Of a stretch of DNA of 64,000 nt, positions 19,771 to 39,211 are shown piece by piece. The notes beneath the pieces are model-generated. The model searched no databases and was not told the DNA's origin. It saw nothing but the letters and a program-made list of their open reading frames with translations. The stretch lies in assembly GCA_012518675.1 (NCBI GenBank), contig JAAYRR010000133.1, positions 7,015 through 71,014 of the forward strand. The letters run 5' to 3'. Each line of letters opens with the position of its first letter. Positions within the stretch are counted from its first letter, which is position 1. This DNA is from Bacillota bacterium (lineage in GTDB: Bacteria; Bacillota; Dethiobacteria; DTU022; UBA8154). The translations under genes and the position numbers were made by a program.

Positions 19771-19815
19771 ACCATCATCCCCTCACCTGCAAAAACCAGG
19801 CAGGTGCATACAGCT

Positions 19816-20000
19816 AAAGGCAGGTCTCCTGGCTTCCGGATCAAAACTTGTTTACTACACCTTAGTCCCTTCCCATTCCCCTTCCCTTTACGGTTAGGAA
19901 ACAGTGGCTTTGGCTGCAGCTCCCCGGTTACAGTGGCGGGACCGCGCAGGAATTACACCTGTCTTCCCTATTCTCCGCTAAAAACGGCACCTTTAGCAAC
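19816..20000 (-). promoter_or_regulatory. Cobalamin (AdoCbl) riboswitch aptamer
   Basis: The minus strand reads AAAGGTGCC...AATAGGGAAG...GGTGTAATTCC...GCGCGGTCCCGCCACTGTAACCGGGGAGC...GCCACTG...GGGAAGG...AGCCAGGAGACCTGCC. All canonical cobalamin-riboswitch core elements are present and in order, including the B12 box. Confidence 0.8.
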
Positions 20001-20015
20001 AATATTATTTGCTTT

Positions 20016-23121: not shown

Positions 23122-23131
23122 TTTAAAATAT

Positions 23132-23505
23132 GCATGAGCAAACCTGTAAGCCGAGTTCTGTTCTCCTTAAAAGGAGCGGCAGCCATCTATCTAGGGCGCC
23201 AGTTGCCTGGCTCCTCCAGCGACTCACACCCGAGGGATTCGGCGGGCAACGTCATCTCCCTCCTATTCAGTCTTGCTCCGGGTGGGGTTTACCTAGCAGG
23301 CCGGTCACCCGGCCCCTGGTACGCTTTTACCGTACCGTTGCACCCTTACCCGGATAAAAAATAAATTTTTTACCCGGGCGGTTTATTTCTGTGGCACTAT
23401 CCTTGGGGTCGCCCCCACTGGGCGTTACCCAGCACCCTGCCCTGCGGAGCTCGGACTTTCCTCGGAAGTCATACTTACCCCCGCGACTGCCTAGTTTACT
23501 CATGT
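23132..23505 (-). ncRNA. rnpB: RNase P RNA, bacterial type A
   Basis: The minus strand contains GAGGAAAGTCCGAGCTCCGCAGGGCAGGGTGCTGGGTAACGCCCAGTGGGGGCGACCCCAAGGATAGTGCCACAGAAA...GGGTAAGGGTGCAACGGTACGGTAAAAGCGTACC...ACAGAACTCGGCTTACAGG, nearly collinear with E. coli M1 RNA conserved regions. The P1 ends pair. Confidence 0.85.
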
Positions 23506-30651: not shown

Positions 30652-32094
30652 TTGACTGCATTTGAAGCTGTTATCGGTCTGGAGGTACATGTTGAACTTT
30701 TAACACAAACCAAATTATTCTGCAGTTGCAGCACGGACTTTGGCGCCGCTCCCAATACCCAGGTTTGCCCCATATGTCTGGGCCTGCCCGGAGGCAACAC
30801 GCCACGTCTTAACAAAAAAGCGGTTGCATACGCTATTAAAACTGCCCTGGCTTTAAACTGCCAGGTTGCGCAAGAGATAACCTTTGACCGTAAAAACTAT
30901 TTTTATGCCGACTTACCAAACGGCTACCAGATAACCCAGCACTTTCATCCTATGGGGAAAAAAGGCTTTCTCCCGGTTAATGTCGCAGAAAAAACAAAAA
31001 ATATTGGCATCCACCAGGTTCATCTGGAAGAGGATGCGGGTAAAATGTTCCATGTAGGCGATATTCTTTCCTCCCCTTTCAGCAGGGTGGATTTTAACCG
31101 GGCCAGCGTGCCCCTAGTAGAAATTGTCACAGAGCCCGACCTACGCACAGCAGAAGAAGCCAGACTTTTTCTCCAAAAATTACGCAATACATTACTCTAT
31201 ATTGGCATTTCAGATTGTAAGATGGAGGAAGGTTCCCTGCGCTGCGATGCCAATATTAGCCTGCGTCCCTTGGGAAGCAAGGAACTAGGCGTGAAAACAG
31301 AGCTTAAAAATATGAATTCTTTTCGTGCCGTTTACCGGGGCATTGAATACGAAATCGAAAGGCAAACTGGTATCCTGCAAGAAGGGGGCACAGTCATTCC
31401 AGAAACCAGACATTGGGATGAAGAAATAGGTGCCACTAAATCCATGCGGGAAAAACTTTCAGAGAGCTACCGCTATTTTCCCGATCCGGTTTTGCTGCCT
31501 TTGAAAACTGATACAAAATGGTTGGAAGAGATCCTTTATTCGATCCCGGAACTTCCTGATTCCCGTTACAAAAGGTTTACTGAAGACTATGGCTTACCGC
31601 CCTATGATGCCGAAGTTCTAACCTCTTCCCGTGATTTGGCTGACTACTATGAACAAGCCCTGCAAACATACCCTGAACATAAGAATTTAAGCAACTGGAT
31701 CATGAGTGAATTAATGGGACTCTTAAATGCCAATAATATGGAGATCACAGCCTGCAAGGTAGAACCCCCGGAATTGGGCGATCTTTTAAAATTAATTGAT
31801 CAGGGTACAATCAGTGGCAAGATTGCTAAAACGGTCTTTGAGGAGATGTTTACCACCGGGGAAAAACCGGAAAAAATTATTAGGGAAAAGGGACTCACGC
31901 AAATTTCTGATGAAGAAACCCTGCTTAAAATTGTGGATACAGTGGTAACAGCCCACCCCGGTTCAGTAGAGGATTATCATAACGGTAAAAATAAGGCACT
32001 GGGGTTTCTTGTCGGGCAAGTAATGAAAGAAACAAAAGGCCAGGCCAATCCGCGGTTGGTAAACAAACTGTTGCAAAAAAAATTAAGCAATTAA
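30652..32094 (+). CDS. gatB: Asp/Glu-tRNA amidotransferase subunit B
   Basis: AVIGLEVHVELLTQTKLFCSC...CPICLGLPG N-terminus and canonical GatB throughout, 480 aa. Confidence 0.9.
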   Translation: MTAFEAVIGLEVHVELLTQTKLFCSCSTDFGAAPNTQVCPICLGLPGGNTPRLNKKAVAYAIKTALALNCQVAQEITFDRKNYFYADLPNGYQITQHFHPMGKKGFLPVNVAEKTKNIGIHQVHLEEDAGKMFHVGDILSSPFSRVDFNRASVPLVEIVTEPDLRTAEEARLFLQKLRNTLLYIGISDCKMEEGSLRCDANISLRPLGSKELGVKTELKNMNSFRAVYRGIEYEIERQTGILQEGGTVIPETRHWDEEIGATKSMREKLSESYRYFPDPVLLPLKTDTKWLEEILYSIPELPDSRYKRFTEDYGLPPYDAEVLTSSRDLADYYEQALQTYPEHKNLSNWIMSELMGLLNANNMEITACKVEPPELGDLLKLIDQGTISGKIAKTVFEEMFTTGEKPEKIIREKGLTQISDEETLLKIVDTVVTAHPGSVEDYHNGKNKALGFLVGQVMKETKGQANPRLVNKLLQKKLSN

Positions 32095-32331
32095 AAATCT
32101 GCAGCCCAAAAACAACCGGGCTGCAGACTGGCAAAAGAAACAACAATTATTATACCCGCTTGTTGCATATGATACATTCCCTTCTGTAAATGTTCCTACT
32201 TCATCCTATTAAGATTTAGATGGACTGGGCCGGAAAAAATTGCATCCCTTGGGTAAAACTACATCTTGACGACAACCAACAACACGCAAAAAATCAAAAA
32301 AATATACCCCCGAAGCATGATGCTGCAAGAG

Positions 32332-32415
32332 TTTTGGGGTTTAGGTTTGGGTTTTGGGTTTTGGGGTTTGGGTTTTTGGGGTTTTGGGGTTTGGGTTTGG
32401 GGGCTTGGGGTGGGG
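32332..32415 (+). repeat. Telomere-like G/T microsatellite, about 12 units of T3-5G3-5 (TTTTGGGG/TTTGGG)
   Basis: Direct reading: TTTTGGGGTTTAGGTTTGGGTTTTGGGTTTTGGGGTTTGGGTTTTTGGGGTTTTGGGGTTTGGGTTTGGGGGCTTGGGGTGGGG. It is intergenic between gatB and the tRNA. A G-quadruplex could form on the + strand and an i-motif on the - strand. Confidence 0.85.
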
Positions 32416-32604
32416 AGCTTTCATTTTTAAATGGGGTACAAAGCAAACGTGGTGCTCACAGCATCATTGTTTGGTTAATGACCCGCAACCTGGTAATTTC
32501 CCGCAGGGTCATAATAAATGTCTCCTCTCTCAGAGGTGACATTTTATCAGAACAAATTCAACATGACATTATTATAGAATAACTACATAACGGCCCCAAT
32601 TTAT

Positions 32605-32632
32605 TTGACATATTTTAAGCTTCAGTTATAAT
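32605..32632 (+). promoter_or_regulatory. Sigma-A promoter (TTGACA-N16-TATAAT) upstream of tRNA-Leu
   Basis: Perfect consensus hexamers about 60 nt upstream of the tRNA 5' end. Confidence 0.5.
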
Positions 32633-32692
32633 ATATGTTAGGGTCTTAGCATCACATTAATATTATAAAGATCTGTTTTTTTTCTTCCGCTT

Positions 32693-32778
32693 GCCCGAGT
32701 GTCGGAACCGGCAGACGAGACGGTCTCAAAAACCGTTGTCCTTTGGACGTGTGAGTTCGAGTCTCACCTCGGGCACCA
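32693..32778 (+). tRNA. tRNA-Leu (anticodon CAA), class II with long variable arm, CCA encoded
   Basis: Acceptor stem GCCCGAG/CTCGGGC. Anticodon stem ACGGT/ACCGT with loop CUCAAAA (U33, CAA, A37). T-arm GTGAG-TTCGAGT-CTCAC. 3' ACCA. Confidence 0.8.
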
Positions 32779-32786
32779 ACCTTTTT

Positions 32787-32832
32787 AAAGGGGTTCATAA
32801 AGGCTGGCTGCACAGCCTGGTGGACCCCTTTT
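32787..32832 (+). terminator. Hairpin plus T-run downstream of the tRNA
   Basis: AAAGGGGT...GACCCCTTTT with an internal GGCTG-CAC-AGCC hairpin. Confidence 0.5.
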
Positions 32833-33199
32833 AATTTTTGAACTGTGTATCAACTGCAAAGACCCCCTTTTAACATTGCCTGCCAATATCTTAAAATTTT
32901 TAACCGGACAAATTACAACAATGTTTTTAAAATTCCTGACAAACCTTTTACCCCGAACATCAACAATCTGTCCACAAAACAAAATATCTAAGAACCCTAG
33001 AATAGGGTATAGCCTAAACATAGCTATGCAAAAAATGTCTTTAAAACATTTAAACAGCTTTGCCTAAATGATCCCTTAAAAAAGTATGATCCGGACATCT
33101 TTAAACTAGCAGGCTATACCCCAGGCCCTATTCCCGCTTACAGAAAAAGAGCCCGCTTTACCGGCCTTTGGACAGACATATCCAGCACCCTTCCAGCAT

Positions 33200-34015
33200 T
33201 TAGCGTTGTATTTCAAGCCAATCCTTATCTTCTTTTTCCAGCTTACCAAGCAGATACGGGTTTAAAACCCTTAAATAGGTTCCCTTCATACCCAAAGAAT
33301 GGGTTTCAATTACGCCTGCACTTTTAAGTTTTCGCAAGGCATTAACAATTACCGACCTGGTAATATTCAATTTATCAGCAACCTTACTGGTCACAATCAG
33401 GCCCTCATTTGCTTCTAATTCTTTAAATACCCGGACCGCTGCTTCCAATTCAGAATACGACAGCGCCCCTATCGCTTGCTGTACGGCAGCCTTGTTTCTG
33501 ATTTTTTCTTCGGTTATTCCTGATTCTAAATTTAAGATTTCTATGCCTGCAACAGTAGCCACTGTCTCCGCAAGAATCAAATCACCTGTATCAAAAGGTT
33601 TGTGGGGACGAATTAAAATAAGAACCCCCAACCTTTTATTGCGGCCCAAAATAGGAACAAAGGTGGTAAATATATTTTTAAAAATACATGTTTCCGCCCT
33701 GTTAAAAATACATTTGTTATTACTTTGCGCCAAGTTTACCTTGCCCCGGCCTTCCAAGCCATACAACATAGGGTCTTGAAAGTTTTCCGGAAACTGTCCT
33801 TTCTTTAAGAAACCGTCCATCAGCCCACAACTGTATTCATTTACAAGTGCATACCGTAAAATTTTGCCTTCGGTATCAGTAATATATACGTTAGCATGAA
33901 TTACATTTTTTAAAACCTTGATTACTTCAAAATGCTTCACTTTTTGTTCTGTTTGCAGTGTTTTACGAATAAAACGAGTCTTTTCCAGCAAAGAAGAATT
34001 AATCACTTTTACCAC
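33200..34015 (-). CDS. CodY-family GAF/wHTH transcriptional regulator, paralog 1
   Basis: The C-terminal 100 aa is nearly identical to the B. subtilis CodY HTH region (ADKLNITRSVIVNALRKLKSAGVIETHSLGMKGTYLRVLN). ILAETVATVAGIEIL and AVQQAIGALSYSELEA are also present. The N-terminal GAF portion is diverged. Confidence 0.8.
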   Translation of the reverse strand: MVKVINSSLLEKTRFIRKTLQTEQKVKHFEVIKVLKNVIHANVYITDTEGKILRYALVNEYSCGLMDGFLKKGQFPENFQDPMLYGLEGRGKVNLAQSNNKCIFNRAETCIFKNIFTTFVPILGRNKRLGVLILIRPHKPFDTGDLILAETVATVAGIEILNLESGITEEKIRNKAAVQQAIGALSYSELEAAVRVFKELEANEGLIVTSKVADKLNITRSVIVNALRKLKSAGVIETHSLGMKGTYLRVLNPYLLGKLEKEDKDWLEIQR

Positions 34016-34146
34016 CTCACTTTTTTTCTATATAAGGGTAATTTTTGTTAAAGGGACCTCCTTTTTGCCAAAAGAGCTGGAAGGAAGAACAAAAACAGAG
34101 GCCCCTGTAACAAAATAAGGGATCTTTCTGACAAATAACTGTAAAA

Positions 34147-35730
34147 TTATTCTACCTTCTCACCAATTTTACGTAATTTAAACCGCTGTATTTTCCCGGT
34201 TGCACTCTTGGGCAGTTCAGAAACAATTTCTACAAAGCGGGGGTATTTAAATTTGGCCAACCGATCCAAGGACCACTGTTTGAGTTCGTTTATTAGTTCA
34301 TCCGAACCGGTAAAGCCTTCCTTAAGTACCACAAAAGCTTTGGGTTTAATTAAATTTTTATGATCAGGGTACCCGATCACTGCACATTCCAGCACCGCAG
34401 GATGTTCAATCAGGCAACCTTCCACTTCTACCGGTGAAACCCAGATACCGCCAACTTTCAGCATGTCATCGTCCCTGCCCGCACAATGGTAATAACCATT
34501 TTCGTCTTGGTAGTAAGTGTCCCCAGTGTTCAGCCATTCACCTTGCATCGTAGAACGGGTTTTTTCCACCTTACGCCAATAATTTTGGGCAGCACTGCGG
34601 CCCTTCACATGCAGGGTTCCGATTTCGCCCTGTGGTACTTCCTTCCCTTCATTATCAACAATCCTTATTTCATACCCGGGAACAGGCTTCCCGGTTGCGC
34701 CCGGTTTAATGTCGCCAGGTCTGTTGGAAATATAGATATGCAACATTTCTGTTGAACCGATACCATCCAAAATATCGATACCAAAACGTTCCTTCCAGCG
34801 GCGGATGATATCTACCGGCAAAGCCTCACCTGCCGACACACATAATCTTACGGAAGTTAGTTCGTGATCGTTGGGATCCGCCTTGGCACCTGTTTCCTTT
34901 TCTTGGCGAGCCTTGTATTCAAGCATCTGCCCGTAGAGGGTGGGTACACCAAAGAAAATTGTAGGACGGAAACGTTCAATGTGACTAAATACACTTTCGG
35001 GAGTCGGGCGGGATTTGTTTAAAATCACTGAACCGCCTACAGCCAAGGGGAAAAACAAACCGTTCCCGATACCATAGGCAAAAAATAACCGGGCTGCTGA
35101 AAAACAGATATCATTTTCATTCATTCCCAAAACTCCCTGGGCAAAATTTTCAGAAGCAACCAGGGGGCTTTCCATACAGTGTACAGCTCCCTTGGGGGGG
35201 CCTGTTGAACCTGAACTGTAAAGCCAGAACCCTACATCGTCCTTGGTTGTTTTCACAGTTTCCAAAATAGGAGAAGCATTTTTTACCTTTTGCCTGAAGG
35301 GGATTAACGGTTCATCATCTGCAACAACAATCATATCCCTAAGGTAAAGCAGATCACCTTTAATATCATTAATCAACGGTACCAGGTCTTCCGATATAAT
35401 CAAGGCCTTGGCCCGGCTGTCGTTAAGTAAGTATTCATAATCGTTGGGTGTAAGCATGGTGTTGATTGGAATGGGCACAGCCCCAATTTTCATGGCACCG
35501 AAAAACATTACAAGAAATTGAGGTTCATCCAGCATCATGAGCATAATGCGATCATCTATACCCAAACCCATTTCACGAAAAGCGTTGCCGGTTTTATTGG
35601 CCATTTCCTGCAGTTCGCTATAAGTGTAGTTGCGCCTTTCAGTATAAATGGCAACTTTATGACCTCTTCCCTGCCGAATATTTCTATCTAAAAAATAATC
35701 TGCCGCGTTAAAAAAAGGTTGGTTTTTCAT
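34147..35730 (-). CDS. Aromatic-acid--CoA ligase, benzoate-CoA ligase family (AMP-forming), copy 1
   Basis: AMP-binding motifs WLYSSGSTGPPKGAVH and GYGxTE-like GIGSTEMLH, the C-terminal ATGKIQR, and 527 aa, typical for BCL/4-hydroxybenzoate-CoA ligases. Confidence 0.75.
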   Translation of the reverse strand: MKNQPFFNAADYFLDRNIRQGRGHKVAIYTERRNYTYSELQEMANKTGNAFREMGLGIDDRIMLMMLDEPQFLVMFFGAMKIGAVPIPINTMLTPNDYEYLLNDSRAKALIISEDLVPLINDIKGDLLYLRDMIVVADDEPLIPFRQKVKNASPILETVKTTKDDVGFWLYSSGSTGPPKGAVHCMESPLVASENFAQGVLGMNENDICFSAARLFFAYGIGNGLFFPLAVGGSVILNKSRPTPESVFSHIERFRPTIFFGVPTLYGQMLEYKARQEKETGAKADPNDHELTSVRLCVSAGEALPVDIIRRWKERFGIDILDGIGSTEMLHIYISNRPGDIKPGATGKPVPGYEIRIVDNEGKEVPQGEIGTLHVKGRSAAQNYWRKVEKTRSTMQGEWLNTGDTYYQDENGYYHCAGRDDDMLKVGGIWVSPVEVEGCLIEHPAVLECAVIGYPDHKNLIKPKAFVVLKEGFTGSDELINELKQWSLDRLAKFKYPRFVEIVSELPKSATGKIQRFKLRKIGEKVE

Positions 35731-36638: not shown

Positions 36639-37451
36639 CTAGCGCATCCCAAGCCAATTTTTATCCTCTTTTTCCAGTCGATCCAGTAAATACGGGTTTA
36701 AGACCCTTAAATAGGTTCCTTTCATCCCCAGGGAATGAGTTTCTATTACGCCGGCACTTTTAAGCTTACGCAATGCGTTAACAATAACAGACCTGGTTAT
36801 GCTCAATTTATCTGCAACCTTGCTGGTCACAATCAAACCTTCATCTGTATCCAATTCTTTAAAAACTCGTACCGCTGCCTCCAACTCTGAATAGGACAGC
36901 GCTCCTATTGCTTGCTGCACGATCATCTTGTTTCTGATCTTCTTTTCAAGTTTTTCAGATTTTGAATTCAGAATTGACATCCCGGAAACCGTTGCCACTG
37001 TTTCAGCCAAAATTAAATCCCCGGTATCAAAAGGTTTCAGGGGACGGGTTAAAATTAGTGTTCCTATTCTTTTATTCTGGCCAATAATGGGCACCAGCGT
37101 TGTAAATATATTTTTAAAAACACAGTTTTCGGCCTGTGTAAATATGCACCTGCTAACTTCCTGTGTTAAATTTATCCTGCTTCGGTTGTCGATCCCATGC
37201 AACAGGGAATCCTGATATTTTTCAGTAAATTTGCCTTTTTTAAGGAACCTATCCAGAAGCTCACAACTGTATTCATCCACCAAGGCATGCCCCAAAATAA
37301 GACCATCGGTATCAATAATAAACACATTGGCATGAATGACGTTCTTTAAAACTTCAATTATTTCGAAGAGTTTTACCCCCTGTTCTGTTTGCAAAGTTTT
37401 GCGAATAAAGCGGGTTTTTTCCAACAAAGAAGAATTAAGCAATGTTATCAC
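36639..37451 (-). CDS. CodY-family GAF/wHTH transcriptional regulator, paralog 2
   Basis: About 75 percent identical to paralog 1. The C-terminal HTH is essentially identical, while the N-terminal GAF differs at many positions. Confidence 0.8.
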   Translation of the reverse strand: MITLLNSSLLEKTRFIRKTLQTEQGVKLFEIIEVLKNVIHANVFIIDTDGLILGHALVDEYSCELLDRFLKKGKFTEKYQDSLLHGIDNRSRINLTQEVSRCIFTQAENCVFKNIFTTLVPIIGQNKRIGTLILTRPLKPFDTGDLILAETVATVSGMSILNSKSEKLEKKIRNKMIVQQAIGALSYSELEAAVRVFKELDTDEGLIVTSKVADKLSITRSVIVNALRKLKSAGVIETHSLGMKGTYLRVLNPYLLDRLEKEDKNWLGMR

Positions 37452-37615
37452 CTCCTCAACTCCTTATGTTTATATTAAAAATAGAGGGGCCTCCTCTTTA
37501 ATGCAAACGCTGCCTAAACAAATAAAACGGAGGCCCCTGGTACCAAAAATCTGCACAATTATAAATATTTAACTATTGATATTTAACGGCTTTTGAACAA
37601 CCGTATCTTACTTGG

Positions 37616-39211
37616 TTATTTGGAAGCGGCGTCAGCCTTTTCACTTGCCAAGCGCAGTTTAAACCGCTGAATTTTGCCGGTTGCACTCTTGGGTAGTTCA
37701 GAAATAAATTCTATCCAACGCGGATACTTATATTTGGCCATCCGCTCCAGGGCAAACTGCTTCAGTTCATTGGCCAGCTCTTCAGAACCGGCCGATCCAT
37801 CCTTGAGCACAACATAAGCCTTGGGTTTAATTAAATTCTTTTCATCAGGATGCCCGATCACTGCAGATTCCAGAACAGCAGGGTGTTCAATTAAACAGGC
37901 TTCCACCTCAACCGGCGATACCCAGATACCGCCTACCTTCAGCATATCATCGCCCCTGCCGGCACAGCGGTAATAGCCTTCGTCGTCTACATAATAGCTG
38001 TCACCGGTATCAAGCCATTCCCCCCGCATTGTGGAACGGGTTTTATCTACCTTGCGCCAGTAATTCTGGGCGGCACTGCGGCCTTTTGCCAACAGCCTGC
38101 CTATTTCCCCCTGGGGAACCTCGTTCCCTTCATCATCGACAATTTTAATTTCATAACCAGGGACCGGTTTGCCGGAGGTACCGGGCCTGACATCACCGGG
38201 CAGGTTGGAAATATAGATGTGCAACATTTCTGTAGAGCCGATGCCGTCTAAAATATCTACGCCAAAACGTTCCTTCCAGCGGCGGAGAATATCTTCCGGC
38301 AGGGCTTCCCCGGCCGAAACACACATCCGTACAGAAGAAAGTTCGTGGACTTCAGGATCGGGATCTACACCCTTTTCCTTATCCTGGCGTGCCTTGTATT
38401 CAAGCATCTGCCCATACAAGGTGGGTACACCGAAGAAAAGGGTAGGCCGGAAACGTTCCAGTACGCTAAACACACTTTCGGGAGTCGGGCGGGATTTATT
38501 TAAAACCACTGATCCGCCGGCGGCCATGGGGAAAAACATGCTGTTACCGATACCGTAGGCAAAAAACAGCCGTGCTGCCGAAAAACAGATGTCATCCTCG
38601 GTTACCCCCAACACACCTTTGCCATAGTTTGTGGCGGCAACCAGCGGGCTTTCCATACAGTGCACAGCACCCTTGGGGGGGCCAGTAGAACCTGAGCTGT
38701 AAAGCCAAAATCCCACATCGTCCTTGGTTGTATATTCAGCATCCAAAATAGGAGAAGCGTTTTTGACTTTTTGTCGGAAAGGAACTTGTGGTTCATCATC
38801 AGAGACAACAATCATATCCCTGAGATAAAGAAGATCCCCTTTAATACCACTGATTAATGGTACCAGTTCTTCAGAAATTACCAGCGCCTTGGCCCGGCTG
38901 TCATTTAGCAGGTATTCATAGTCGCTAGGTGTAAGCATGGTGTTAATCGGAACAGGTACAGCACCGATTTTGATGGCACCGAAGTACATTACAAAAAATT
39001 GGGGTTCATCCAGCATCAACAGTATAATCCGGTCGCCGACTTCTAAACCCAGCTCACGGAAAGCGTTGCCTGTTTTGTTGGCCATTTCCTGAATTTCACT
39101 GTAAGTATAATTGCGCCTGTCGGTATAAATGGCAACCTTATGTCCCCTGCCCTGTCGAATGTTCCGATCTAAAAAATAATCCGCAATGTTAAAGAAAGAT
39201 TGATTTTTCAT
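37616..39211 (-). CDS. Aromatic-acid--CoA ligase, benzoate-CoA ligase family, copy 2
   Basis: About 80 percent identical to copy 1, with the same AMP-binding motifs, 531 aa. Confidence 0.75.
   Translation of the reverse strand: MKNQSFFNIADYFLDRNIRQGRGHKVAIYTDRRNYTYSEIQEMANKTGNAFRELGLEVGDRIILLMLDEPQFFVMYFGAIKIGAVPVPINTMLTPSDYEYLLNDSRAKALVISEELVPLISGIKGDLLYLRDMIVVSDDEPQVPFRQKVKNASPILDAEYTTKDDVGFWLYSSGSTGPPKGAVHCMESPLVAATNYGKGVLGVTEDDICFSAARLFFAYGIGNSMFFPMAAGGSVVLNKSRPTPESVFSVLERFRPTLFFGVPTLYGQMLEYKARQDKEKGVDPDPEVHELSSVRMCVSAGEALPEDILRRWKERFGVDILDGIGSTEMLHIYISNLPGDVRPGTSGKPVPGYEIKIVDDEGNEVPQGEIGRLLAKGRSAAQNYWRKVDKTRSTMRGEWLDTGDSYYVDDEGYYRCAGRGDDMLKVGGIWVSPVEVEACLIEHPAVLESAVIGHPDEKNLIKPKAYVVLKDGSAGSEELANELKQFALERMAKYKYPRWIEFISELPKSATGKIQRFKLRLASEKADAASK

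Follow-up and report, generated by a model that had tools for sequence, protein, structure and literature searches.

Heptamer repeats able to form G-quadruplexes (G4s) have been described in intergenic DNA of Xanthomonas (GGGAATC) and Nostoc (GGGGA(C/T)T), where they have no assigned function and usually lie close to gene ends (Rehm et al. 2015, PMC4692102); the same paper cites an over-representation of long simple-sequence repeats (SSRs) in prokaryotes. The tract described here resembles these heptamers in that it is built of G-rich units of about 7 nt, lies between genes and is predicted to be G4-competent, and both vary in length and sequence between close relatives. It differs in that the Xanthomonas and Nostoc repeats are near-perfect and occupy about 100 or more sites per genome, whereas the tract is degenerate, is spaced by T-runs and was seen as one copy in 64 kb. 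Ciliate telomeres (T4G4, T2G4) share its motif and its G4-forming chemistry, but the tract is internal and irregular, and is neither at a replicon end nor made by telomerase. Contingency SSRs of the Haemophilus and Neisseria type are slippage-prone short tandem repeats, as is the tract, which, however, lies outside any promoter spacer or ORF 5' end and shows no length switching among near-identical strains. [quoted passage not shown] Read on the minus strand, the tract is alike in being about 80 nt long, C-rich, nearly G-free and unstructured, with spaced C-runs and a downstream hairpin, although natural RUT sites are not tandem repeats and a sister allele exists without the tract.

The host is an uncultured member of the Bacillota from biogas fermenters, and its GatB is identical to NCBI NLJ57045.1. 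Within the window (the whole 64-kb stretch of DNA analysed), the tract sits in the non-coding spacer between gatCAB, whose last gene gatB ends at 32094, and a tRNA-Leu gene; the -35 element of the tRNA promoter lies 190 bp downstream of it. For about 10 kb to either side the genes are of the housekeeping kind, including those for SASP, L28, GatCAB, CodY (33200-34015, minus strand), AMP-binding enzymes and citrate synthase, and no integrase, transposase or reverse transcriptase is found among them. An earlier reading made from the sequence alone (the sequence-only reading) had placed the tract between a gatCAB terminator and the tRNA-Leu promoter. The position between gatB and the promoter stands, but the hairpin directly after gatB is oriented for the other strand and reads as a putative terminator of minus-strand transcription heading towards gatB. 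The features of the spacer are as follows; L215 is the related metagenome contig discussed below.

32096-32129, minus strand: hairpin with a 14-bp stem directly 3' of gatB, with a T-run on the minus strand only
32101-32582, no strand assigned: lineage-specific, hairpin-rich non-coding spacer of about 480 bp, missing from the closest relative
32288-32306, minus strand: U-run UAUAUUUUUUUGAUUUUUU, 3' of the following hairpin on the minus-strand RNA
32307-32331, minus strand: hairpin adjoining the tract, minus-strand RNA CUCUUGCAGCA-UCA-UGCUUCGGGGG, 10 of 11 pairs formed, including G-U wobbles
32332-32415, plus strand: the 84-nt tract
32344-32403, plus strand: G/T-only core of 60 nt, compared with at most 17 nt for any other run of this kind in the 64-kb window
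32450-32459, plus strand: 10-nt insertion TGGTGCTCAC relative to the L215 allele, creating a hairpin at 32449-32467
32516-32544, no strand assigned: hairpin with 13-nt arms, T-rich on both sides, overlapping a weak minus-strand promoter-like site (32569-32541)
32605-32632, plus strand: perfect TTGACA-16-TATAAT promoter of tRNA-Leu
32693-32778, plus strand: tRNA-Leu(CAA), a neighbouring gene outside the repeat

The tract consists of 12 TTTGGG-like units of the form T3-5G3-5, in the order TTTTGGGG TTTAGG TTTGGG TTTTGGG TTTTGGGG TTTGGG TTTTTGGGG TTTTGGGG TTTGGG TTTGGGGG CTTGGGG TGGGG, which bears out the telomere-like tandem G/T repeat seen in the sequence-only reading. It is G-rich on the plus strand and C/A-rich on the minus strand, and is interrupted by one A and one C. 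Tandem Repeats Finder (TRF) describes it either with period 7 (11.1 copies, 76% matches) or with period 15 (4.6 copies, 81% matches), and a higher-order unit of 14-15 nt is apparent, with six in-register copies spaced 13-15 nt. The units follow one another head to tail well beyond chance, as in prokaryotic SSRs (units of 1-9 nt), but they fall short of the near-perfect units of that class, being 5-9 nt long with 76-81% matches and 3-15% indels. Judged by its letters, the tract is a degenerate SSR with a 14-15 nt higher-order unit. A degenerate motif search of the window returned 10 matches, all of them within the tract, whereas shuffles predicted 0.93. The tract is single in the 64-kb window, and blastn with the 506-bp spacer as query found no further copy there, in phages or in plasmids.

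The highest G4Hunter value of the window, 2.44, falls in the tract, as do both of the canonical plus-strand G4 motifs that the window contains. Like the G4-forming heptamer class, it offers at least four G-runs of three or more residues separated by short loops, from which G4 formation is predicted. Folding with ViennaRNA under DNA parameters yields two tandem predicted G-quadruplexes in the core at -32.5 kcal/mol when G4s are allowed, and 0 when they are not. By these calculations no other site in the window is as strongly predicted to form a G-quadruplex, and the strong potential claimed from the sequence alone is upheld.

The tract is base-for-base identical in four other metagenome assemblies, L001 (ERZ773357), L002 (ERZ925054), L003 (ERZ925076) and L214 (ERZ925077). 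Because of this identity an assembly artefact, which the sequence-only reading had allowed for, is ruled out, and the tract is real. Single-nucleotide differences from the window occur in the flanks of L002 (at 32141) and L001 (at 32533). The expanded allele has the same length in all five assemblies, which speaks against instability, with the caveat that several of the five come from one biogas project and that consensus sequences mask minority length variants. A different allele is found in L215 (ERZ27280805), reached through a CodY look-up. From codY to 32460 this contig is identical to the window at 741 of 741 positions; beyond 32460 it remains homologous at 72% (84/117), and the boundary between the two blocks falls at 32459/32460. 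At the site of the tract, L215 carries the 15-nt, two-unit sequence GGGTTTTGGGATTTT in place of the 84 nt. The surrounding sequence reads ...GCTGCAAGGGTTTTGGGATTTTCATTTTTAAGG..., the two units being GGGTTTT and GGGATTTT, and the 10-nt insertion of the window (32450-32459) is missing. Copy number at the site thus differs between related strains, at 84 nt in the window, L001-L003 and L214 versus 15 nt in L215, with no intermediate lengths seen. The proposal of an SSR whose length varies between lineages is in this respect correct. Contig ends cluster near the tract, at 32412 in L216, 32460 in L217 and 32538 in L003, a pattern that fits two alleles coexisting in the reactors. Two scans of JGI metagenomes, a collection that lacks the source genome, one for the two flanks with a gap between them and one for the right flank alone, gave no matches and no extra alleles.

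The hairpin next to the tract (32307-32331) is kept in the expanded and the unexpanded allele; both differences between the alleles preserve pairs, and the predicted energies are -10.8 and -13.0 kcal/mol. It is weaker on the plus strand, where its G-U wobbles become C-A mismatches. Together with the U-run, it looks like an intrinsic terminator, and a putative minus-strand transcript ending there would bear the C-rich tract near its 3' end.

Comparison with more distant relatives shows a conserved gene order around a spacer that is not conserved. The succession SASP, L28, gatCAB, tRNA-Leu, codY and AMP-binding enzyme is kept, in contrast to the stretch from gatB to the tRNA. In the closest relative (L004-L006, GatB 93% identical), tRNA-Leu follows the gatB stop after only 86 bp, and alignment with the window picks up again only at the tRNA promoter; the approximately 480 bp at 32101-32582 are therefore specific to the lineage of the window. 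At GatB identities of 78-81% the spacers are unrelated and measure about 190-230 bp, the relative L011 (82%) has an unrelated GC-rich element downstream of gatB that extends up to the contig end, and in a relative with 85% the locus is rearranged. No G tract was found at the locus in any of the relatives with GatB at 78-93%. The locus shows that a spacer next to core genes may change by hundreds of bases between near-identical strains. The segment of L011 (4447-4600) is about 150 nt long, GC-rich and apparently structured, at a position 3' of gatB where other relatives have AT-rich spacers; it has no Rfam match at the gathering threshold.

Taken as a whole, the tract is probably a lineage-specific, degenerate and neutral SSR that grew by slippage or unequal exchange from a two-unit seed in a fast-changing spacer, an account that we hold with reasonable though limited confidence. 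The two-unit proto-repeat GGGTTTTGGGATTTT would have been the starting seed, formed as the T-rich flank of a terminator hairpin in the rapidly changing stretch that separates gatCAB from tRNA-Leu. An array of about 5-6 copies of the 14-15 nt unit may then have grown out of this seed, through replication slippage or through unequal recombination, and have been blurred later by slippage inside the G-runs and T-runs and by two substitutions. The G4 potential of the plus strand and the C-rich, unstructured nature of a minus-strand RNA would be by-products of this composition rather than evolved functions. Expansion is the simplest reading because the higher-order unit of the tract matches the two-unit seed in size. 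With only two alleles and an outgroup that lacks the whole spacer, L215 could instead carry a collapsed array. Expansion rather than collapse, slippage as the mechanism and neutrality are what we infer from these comparisons. In either direction, to judge from the aligned alleles, the repeat is dispensable and varies in length from one lineage to another. It would be a clean natural case of a G4-prone repeat present in one lineage, with a short-seed allele preserved in a sister strain.

A functional role is nevertheless conceivable, given the extreme excess of C over G on the minus strand directly upstream of a conserved hairpin; the candidate roles, a RUT site or C-rich RNA on one strand and a G4 or R-loop on the other, are drawn from base composition. 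On the plus strand, a predicted G4 or R-loop arising from gatCAB read-through, which would yield G-rich RNA and leave a G-rich non-template strand, could insulate the tRNA-Leu promoter or pause replication. The G4Hunter value and the two tandem predicted G4s are consistent with such a roadblock. Read-through is plausible since the hairpin after gatB has no plus-strand T-run, and the plus-strand GC skew of -0.074 weakly suggests that the G-rich strand is the leading-strand template. Set against this, the closest relative has its tRNA promoter within the 86-bp gatB spacer and no insulator, L215 does without the tract, and several further hairpins already lie between tract and promoter, and we consider a roadblock unlikely. 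The minus strand of the tract contains 43 C, 39 A, 1 G and 1 U, all unpaired in the predicted fold. A stretch of 78 nt has 41 C and 1 G, and this C-minus-G value of 40 is the extreme of the window on either strand, the next best being 24-26. The RNA is therefore predicted to have the sequence properties of a RUT site, namely 78 nt with more C than G, regular C spacing, lack of structure and a downstream hairpin. The C/A-only RNA could act as such a site, with the hairpin and U-run reinforcing termination before antisense transcription of gatCAB. Both elements come directly after the tract and are conserved in the two alleles, and a transcript could start from the weak promoter-like site at 32569-32541. 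L215, however, has no tract yet retains the hairpin and U-run, and the whole region is absent from relatives, which argues that the tract is dispensable. A predicted intrinsic terminator is also already at the site and RUT-like composition is a loose criterion, so this role too appears improbable. A C-rich regulatory sRNA encoded on the minus strand is very doubtful. Its seed would be the C-run UCCCAAAACCC of L215, pairing with G-rich Shine-Dalgarno sequences and multiplied by the expansion. Unpaired C-rich motifs are known from Firmicute sRNAs, RsaE/RoxS among them, and in both alleles C-runs stand unpaired just upstream of a terminator-like hairpin and its U-run, with a promoter-like site as well, but there is no Rfam match, the region is missing from relatives, and the whole-RNA fold z-scores are -0.41 (window) and -2.29 (L215). 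More generally, we think it quite improbable that the expansion created or amplified a working minus-strand RNA module, in which the 84-nt C-rich, G-free unpaired segment, set right before the conserved terminator hairpin, would serve as a Rho platform or, through its C-runs, as a multivalent sponge or seed for G-rich sequences. If it did, the minus-strand role would represent a rare regulatory RNA element born by microsatellite expansion and caught in the act, and the unexpanded allele would still be circulating in the same habitat as the newborn element.

The remaining explanations concern switching and foreign or coding origin. A phase-variable contingency repeat, in which gain or loss of units switches a neighbouring gene, had been among the possibilities raised by the sequence-only reading. 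The tract is indeed a tandem repeat whose length differs between lineages, and contigs break nearby (L216, L217 and L003). The breaks are, however, explained by the two coexisting alleles with their boundary at 32459/32460. Five assemblies with differing flank SNPs agree in tract length, with no unit-step differences seen among them, and irregular units slip poorly. Moreover, the tract occupies neither a promoter spacer nor an ORF or its 5' end, lying well upstream of the -35 element, and phase variation is accordingly a very remote prospect. Exceedingly unlikely, finally, is that the tract is a tRNA integration scar, foreign DNA (for example ciliate telomeric DNA) or a short Pro/Lys-rich peptide gene. 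A tRNA gene is near, the sequence recalls ciliate telomeres, and a 27-aa minus-strand ORF, MKAPHPKPPNPNPKTPKTQTPKPKTQT, runs through the tract. The idea of a scar, also raised earlier, fails on several counts. The tract is on the 5' side of both the tRNA and the tRNA promoter, a search of the window allowing up to 3 mismatches found no second copy of the tRNA-Leu 3' end, no integrase is encoded among the neighbours, and the seed allele is in place in L215. Because L215 holds this unexpanded allele at the same site, the tract most likely originated in place from local sequence. There is no phage or plasmid match, and irregular units do not fit a telomerase product; nor is the tract terminal, being internal between gatCAB and tRNA-Leu/codY in contigs of at least 27 kb. 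As for the 27-aa ORF, it lacks a Shine-Dalgarno sequence, terminates within the tract and is not conserved. Signals of coding sequence, of mobile elements and of RNA families are absent from the tract. A permissive Rfam search (E up to 10) of 31500-33500 matched only the tRNA, and at the gathering threshold the whole window, L011 and L215 gave nothing at the tract.

Several open reading frames in and around the tract were considered as genes and rejected. Open frames through the tract reach 360 nt at most, and a 120-aa plus-strand ORF is not conserved; ORFs across the tract are short and have no ribosome-binding site. On the minus strand, Pro/Lys-rich ORFs of 27 and 50 aa have no Shine-Dalgarno sequence, and their frame is not kept relative to L215. 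An 18-aa ORF, MTLREITRLRVINQTMML (32459-32512, minus strand), is preceded by a Shine-Dalgarno sequence, AGGAGA, 8 nt before its ATG, but is not conserved and is probably not a gene; its TGA in the window is made by the 10-nt insertion, and in L215 the frame continues to 54 aa, through the terminator hairpin. A hydrophobic ORF of 25-28 aa, MYHMQQAGIIIVVSFASLQPGCFWAADF (32091-32177, minus strand), has a GAAGGGA motif upstream and is likewise not conserved. It ends inside the minus-oriented terminator next to gatB, and in its predicted shape it resembles a type I toxin.

The tract matters little on its own, as an ordinary and probably neutral example of a kind of sequence already known. It does help to separate the telomere-like tracts of prokaryote assemblies, which fall into degenerate local repeats, strict (TTTTGGG)n arrays (common in Bacteroidota), period-6 arrays that are likely to encode Pro-Lys repeats, and ciliate-like T4G4 ends. 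When one genome per prokaryotic species was scanned for the pattern, at least 120 matches came up (L093-L212), which marks G-rich repeats of comparable unit length as a recurrent class; the source genome of the tract is not among the matches listed. Among the matches listed, most are strict (TTTTGGG)n arrays of 40-524 nt in Bacteroidota, Verrucomicrobiota and some Gammaproteobacteria, the longest (524 nt) being that of Kordia jejudonensis. Their hosts, among the matches listed, include Kordia, Flavobacterium, Siphonobacter, Saprospiraceae, Nitrosomonas aestuarii and Pseudomonas; example loci are L101 (2110-2633), L107, L118 and L164. About half of the (TTTTGGG)n matches listed lie outside long ORFs, and convergent flanking gene pairs outnumber divergent ones (14 vs 5). 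These arrays have the composition and unit type of our tract, but they are mostly strict heptamers in other phyla, and their flanks are not homologous to those of the tract. A word search of the literature found no description of (TTTTGGG)n arrays in bacteria.

Internal matches in Bacillota number 3 among the at least 120 listed, which is consistent with the rarity in this phylum that had been supposed at the outset. One of them, in the MAG Bacillota bacterium FM_60_G117_V (L133, 1150-1310), is an intergenic stretch of irregular T3-6G2-5 units, about 150 nt long and broken by A residues; directly downstream of it comes a terminator-like hairpin, CCCTCCACGCTGCCGCGGAGGG, with a T-run behind it. 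Perfect (TTTTGGGG)n repeats also occur in bacterial MAG bins exactly at the ends of contigs of 1-4 kb (one of about 10 kb), in L106, L171, L187 and L207 (Desulfosporosinus MAG_CO4), in L145 and L184 (Ignavibacteriaceae MAG) and in L140, L167, L194 and L202. These ends look like ciliate nanochromosome telomeres contaminating the bins. Among viral contigs, 76 (L012-L087) carry TTTGGG-type tracts. Most of these are strict period-6 (TTTGGG)n, whose translation would give Pro-Lys repeats; many belong to giant-virus MAGs, and some occupy contig ends.

Other features of the region were recorded in passing. In L218 (Logan SRR5185872), 41 bp are deleted relative to window positions 32786-32826, just downstream of tRNA-Leu at its terminator hairpin, which is further evidence that these spacers are indel-rich. 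The tRNA-Leu itself (32693-32778) scores 51.5 bits (gathering score 29) in the local Rfam search and is unlisted in the whole-window search at the gathering threshold. Elsewhere in the window, both on the minus strand, are a class A RNase P RNA at 23131-23502 (308 bits) and a cobalamin riboswitch at 19802-20009 (104 bits). The pair formed by codY and the AMP-binding enzyme gene is duplicated in tandem on the minus strand of the window (33200-35730 and 36639-39211), and each copy encodes full CodY GAF and HTH domains and an acyl/aryl-CoA-ligase-like protein.
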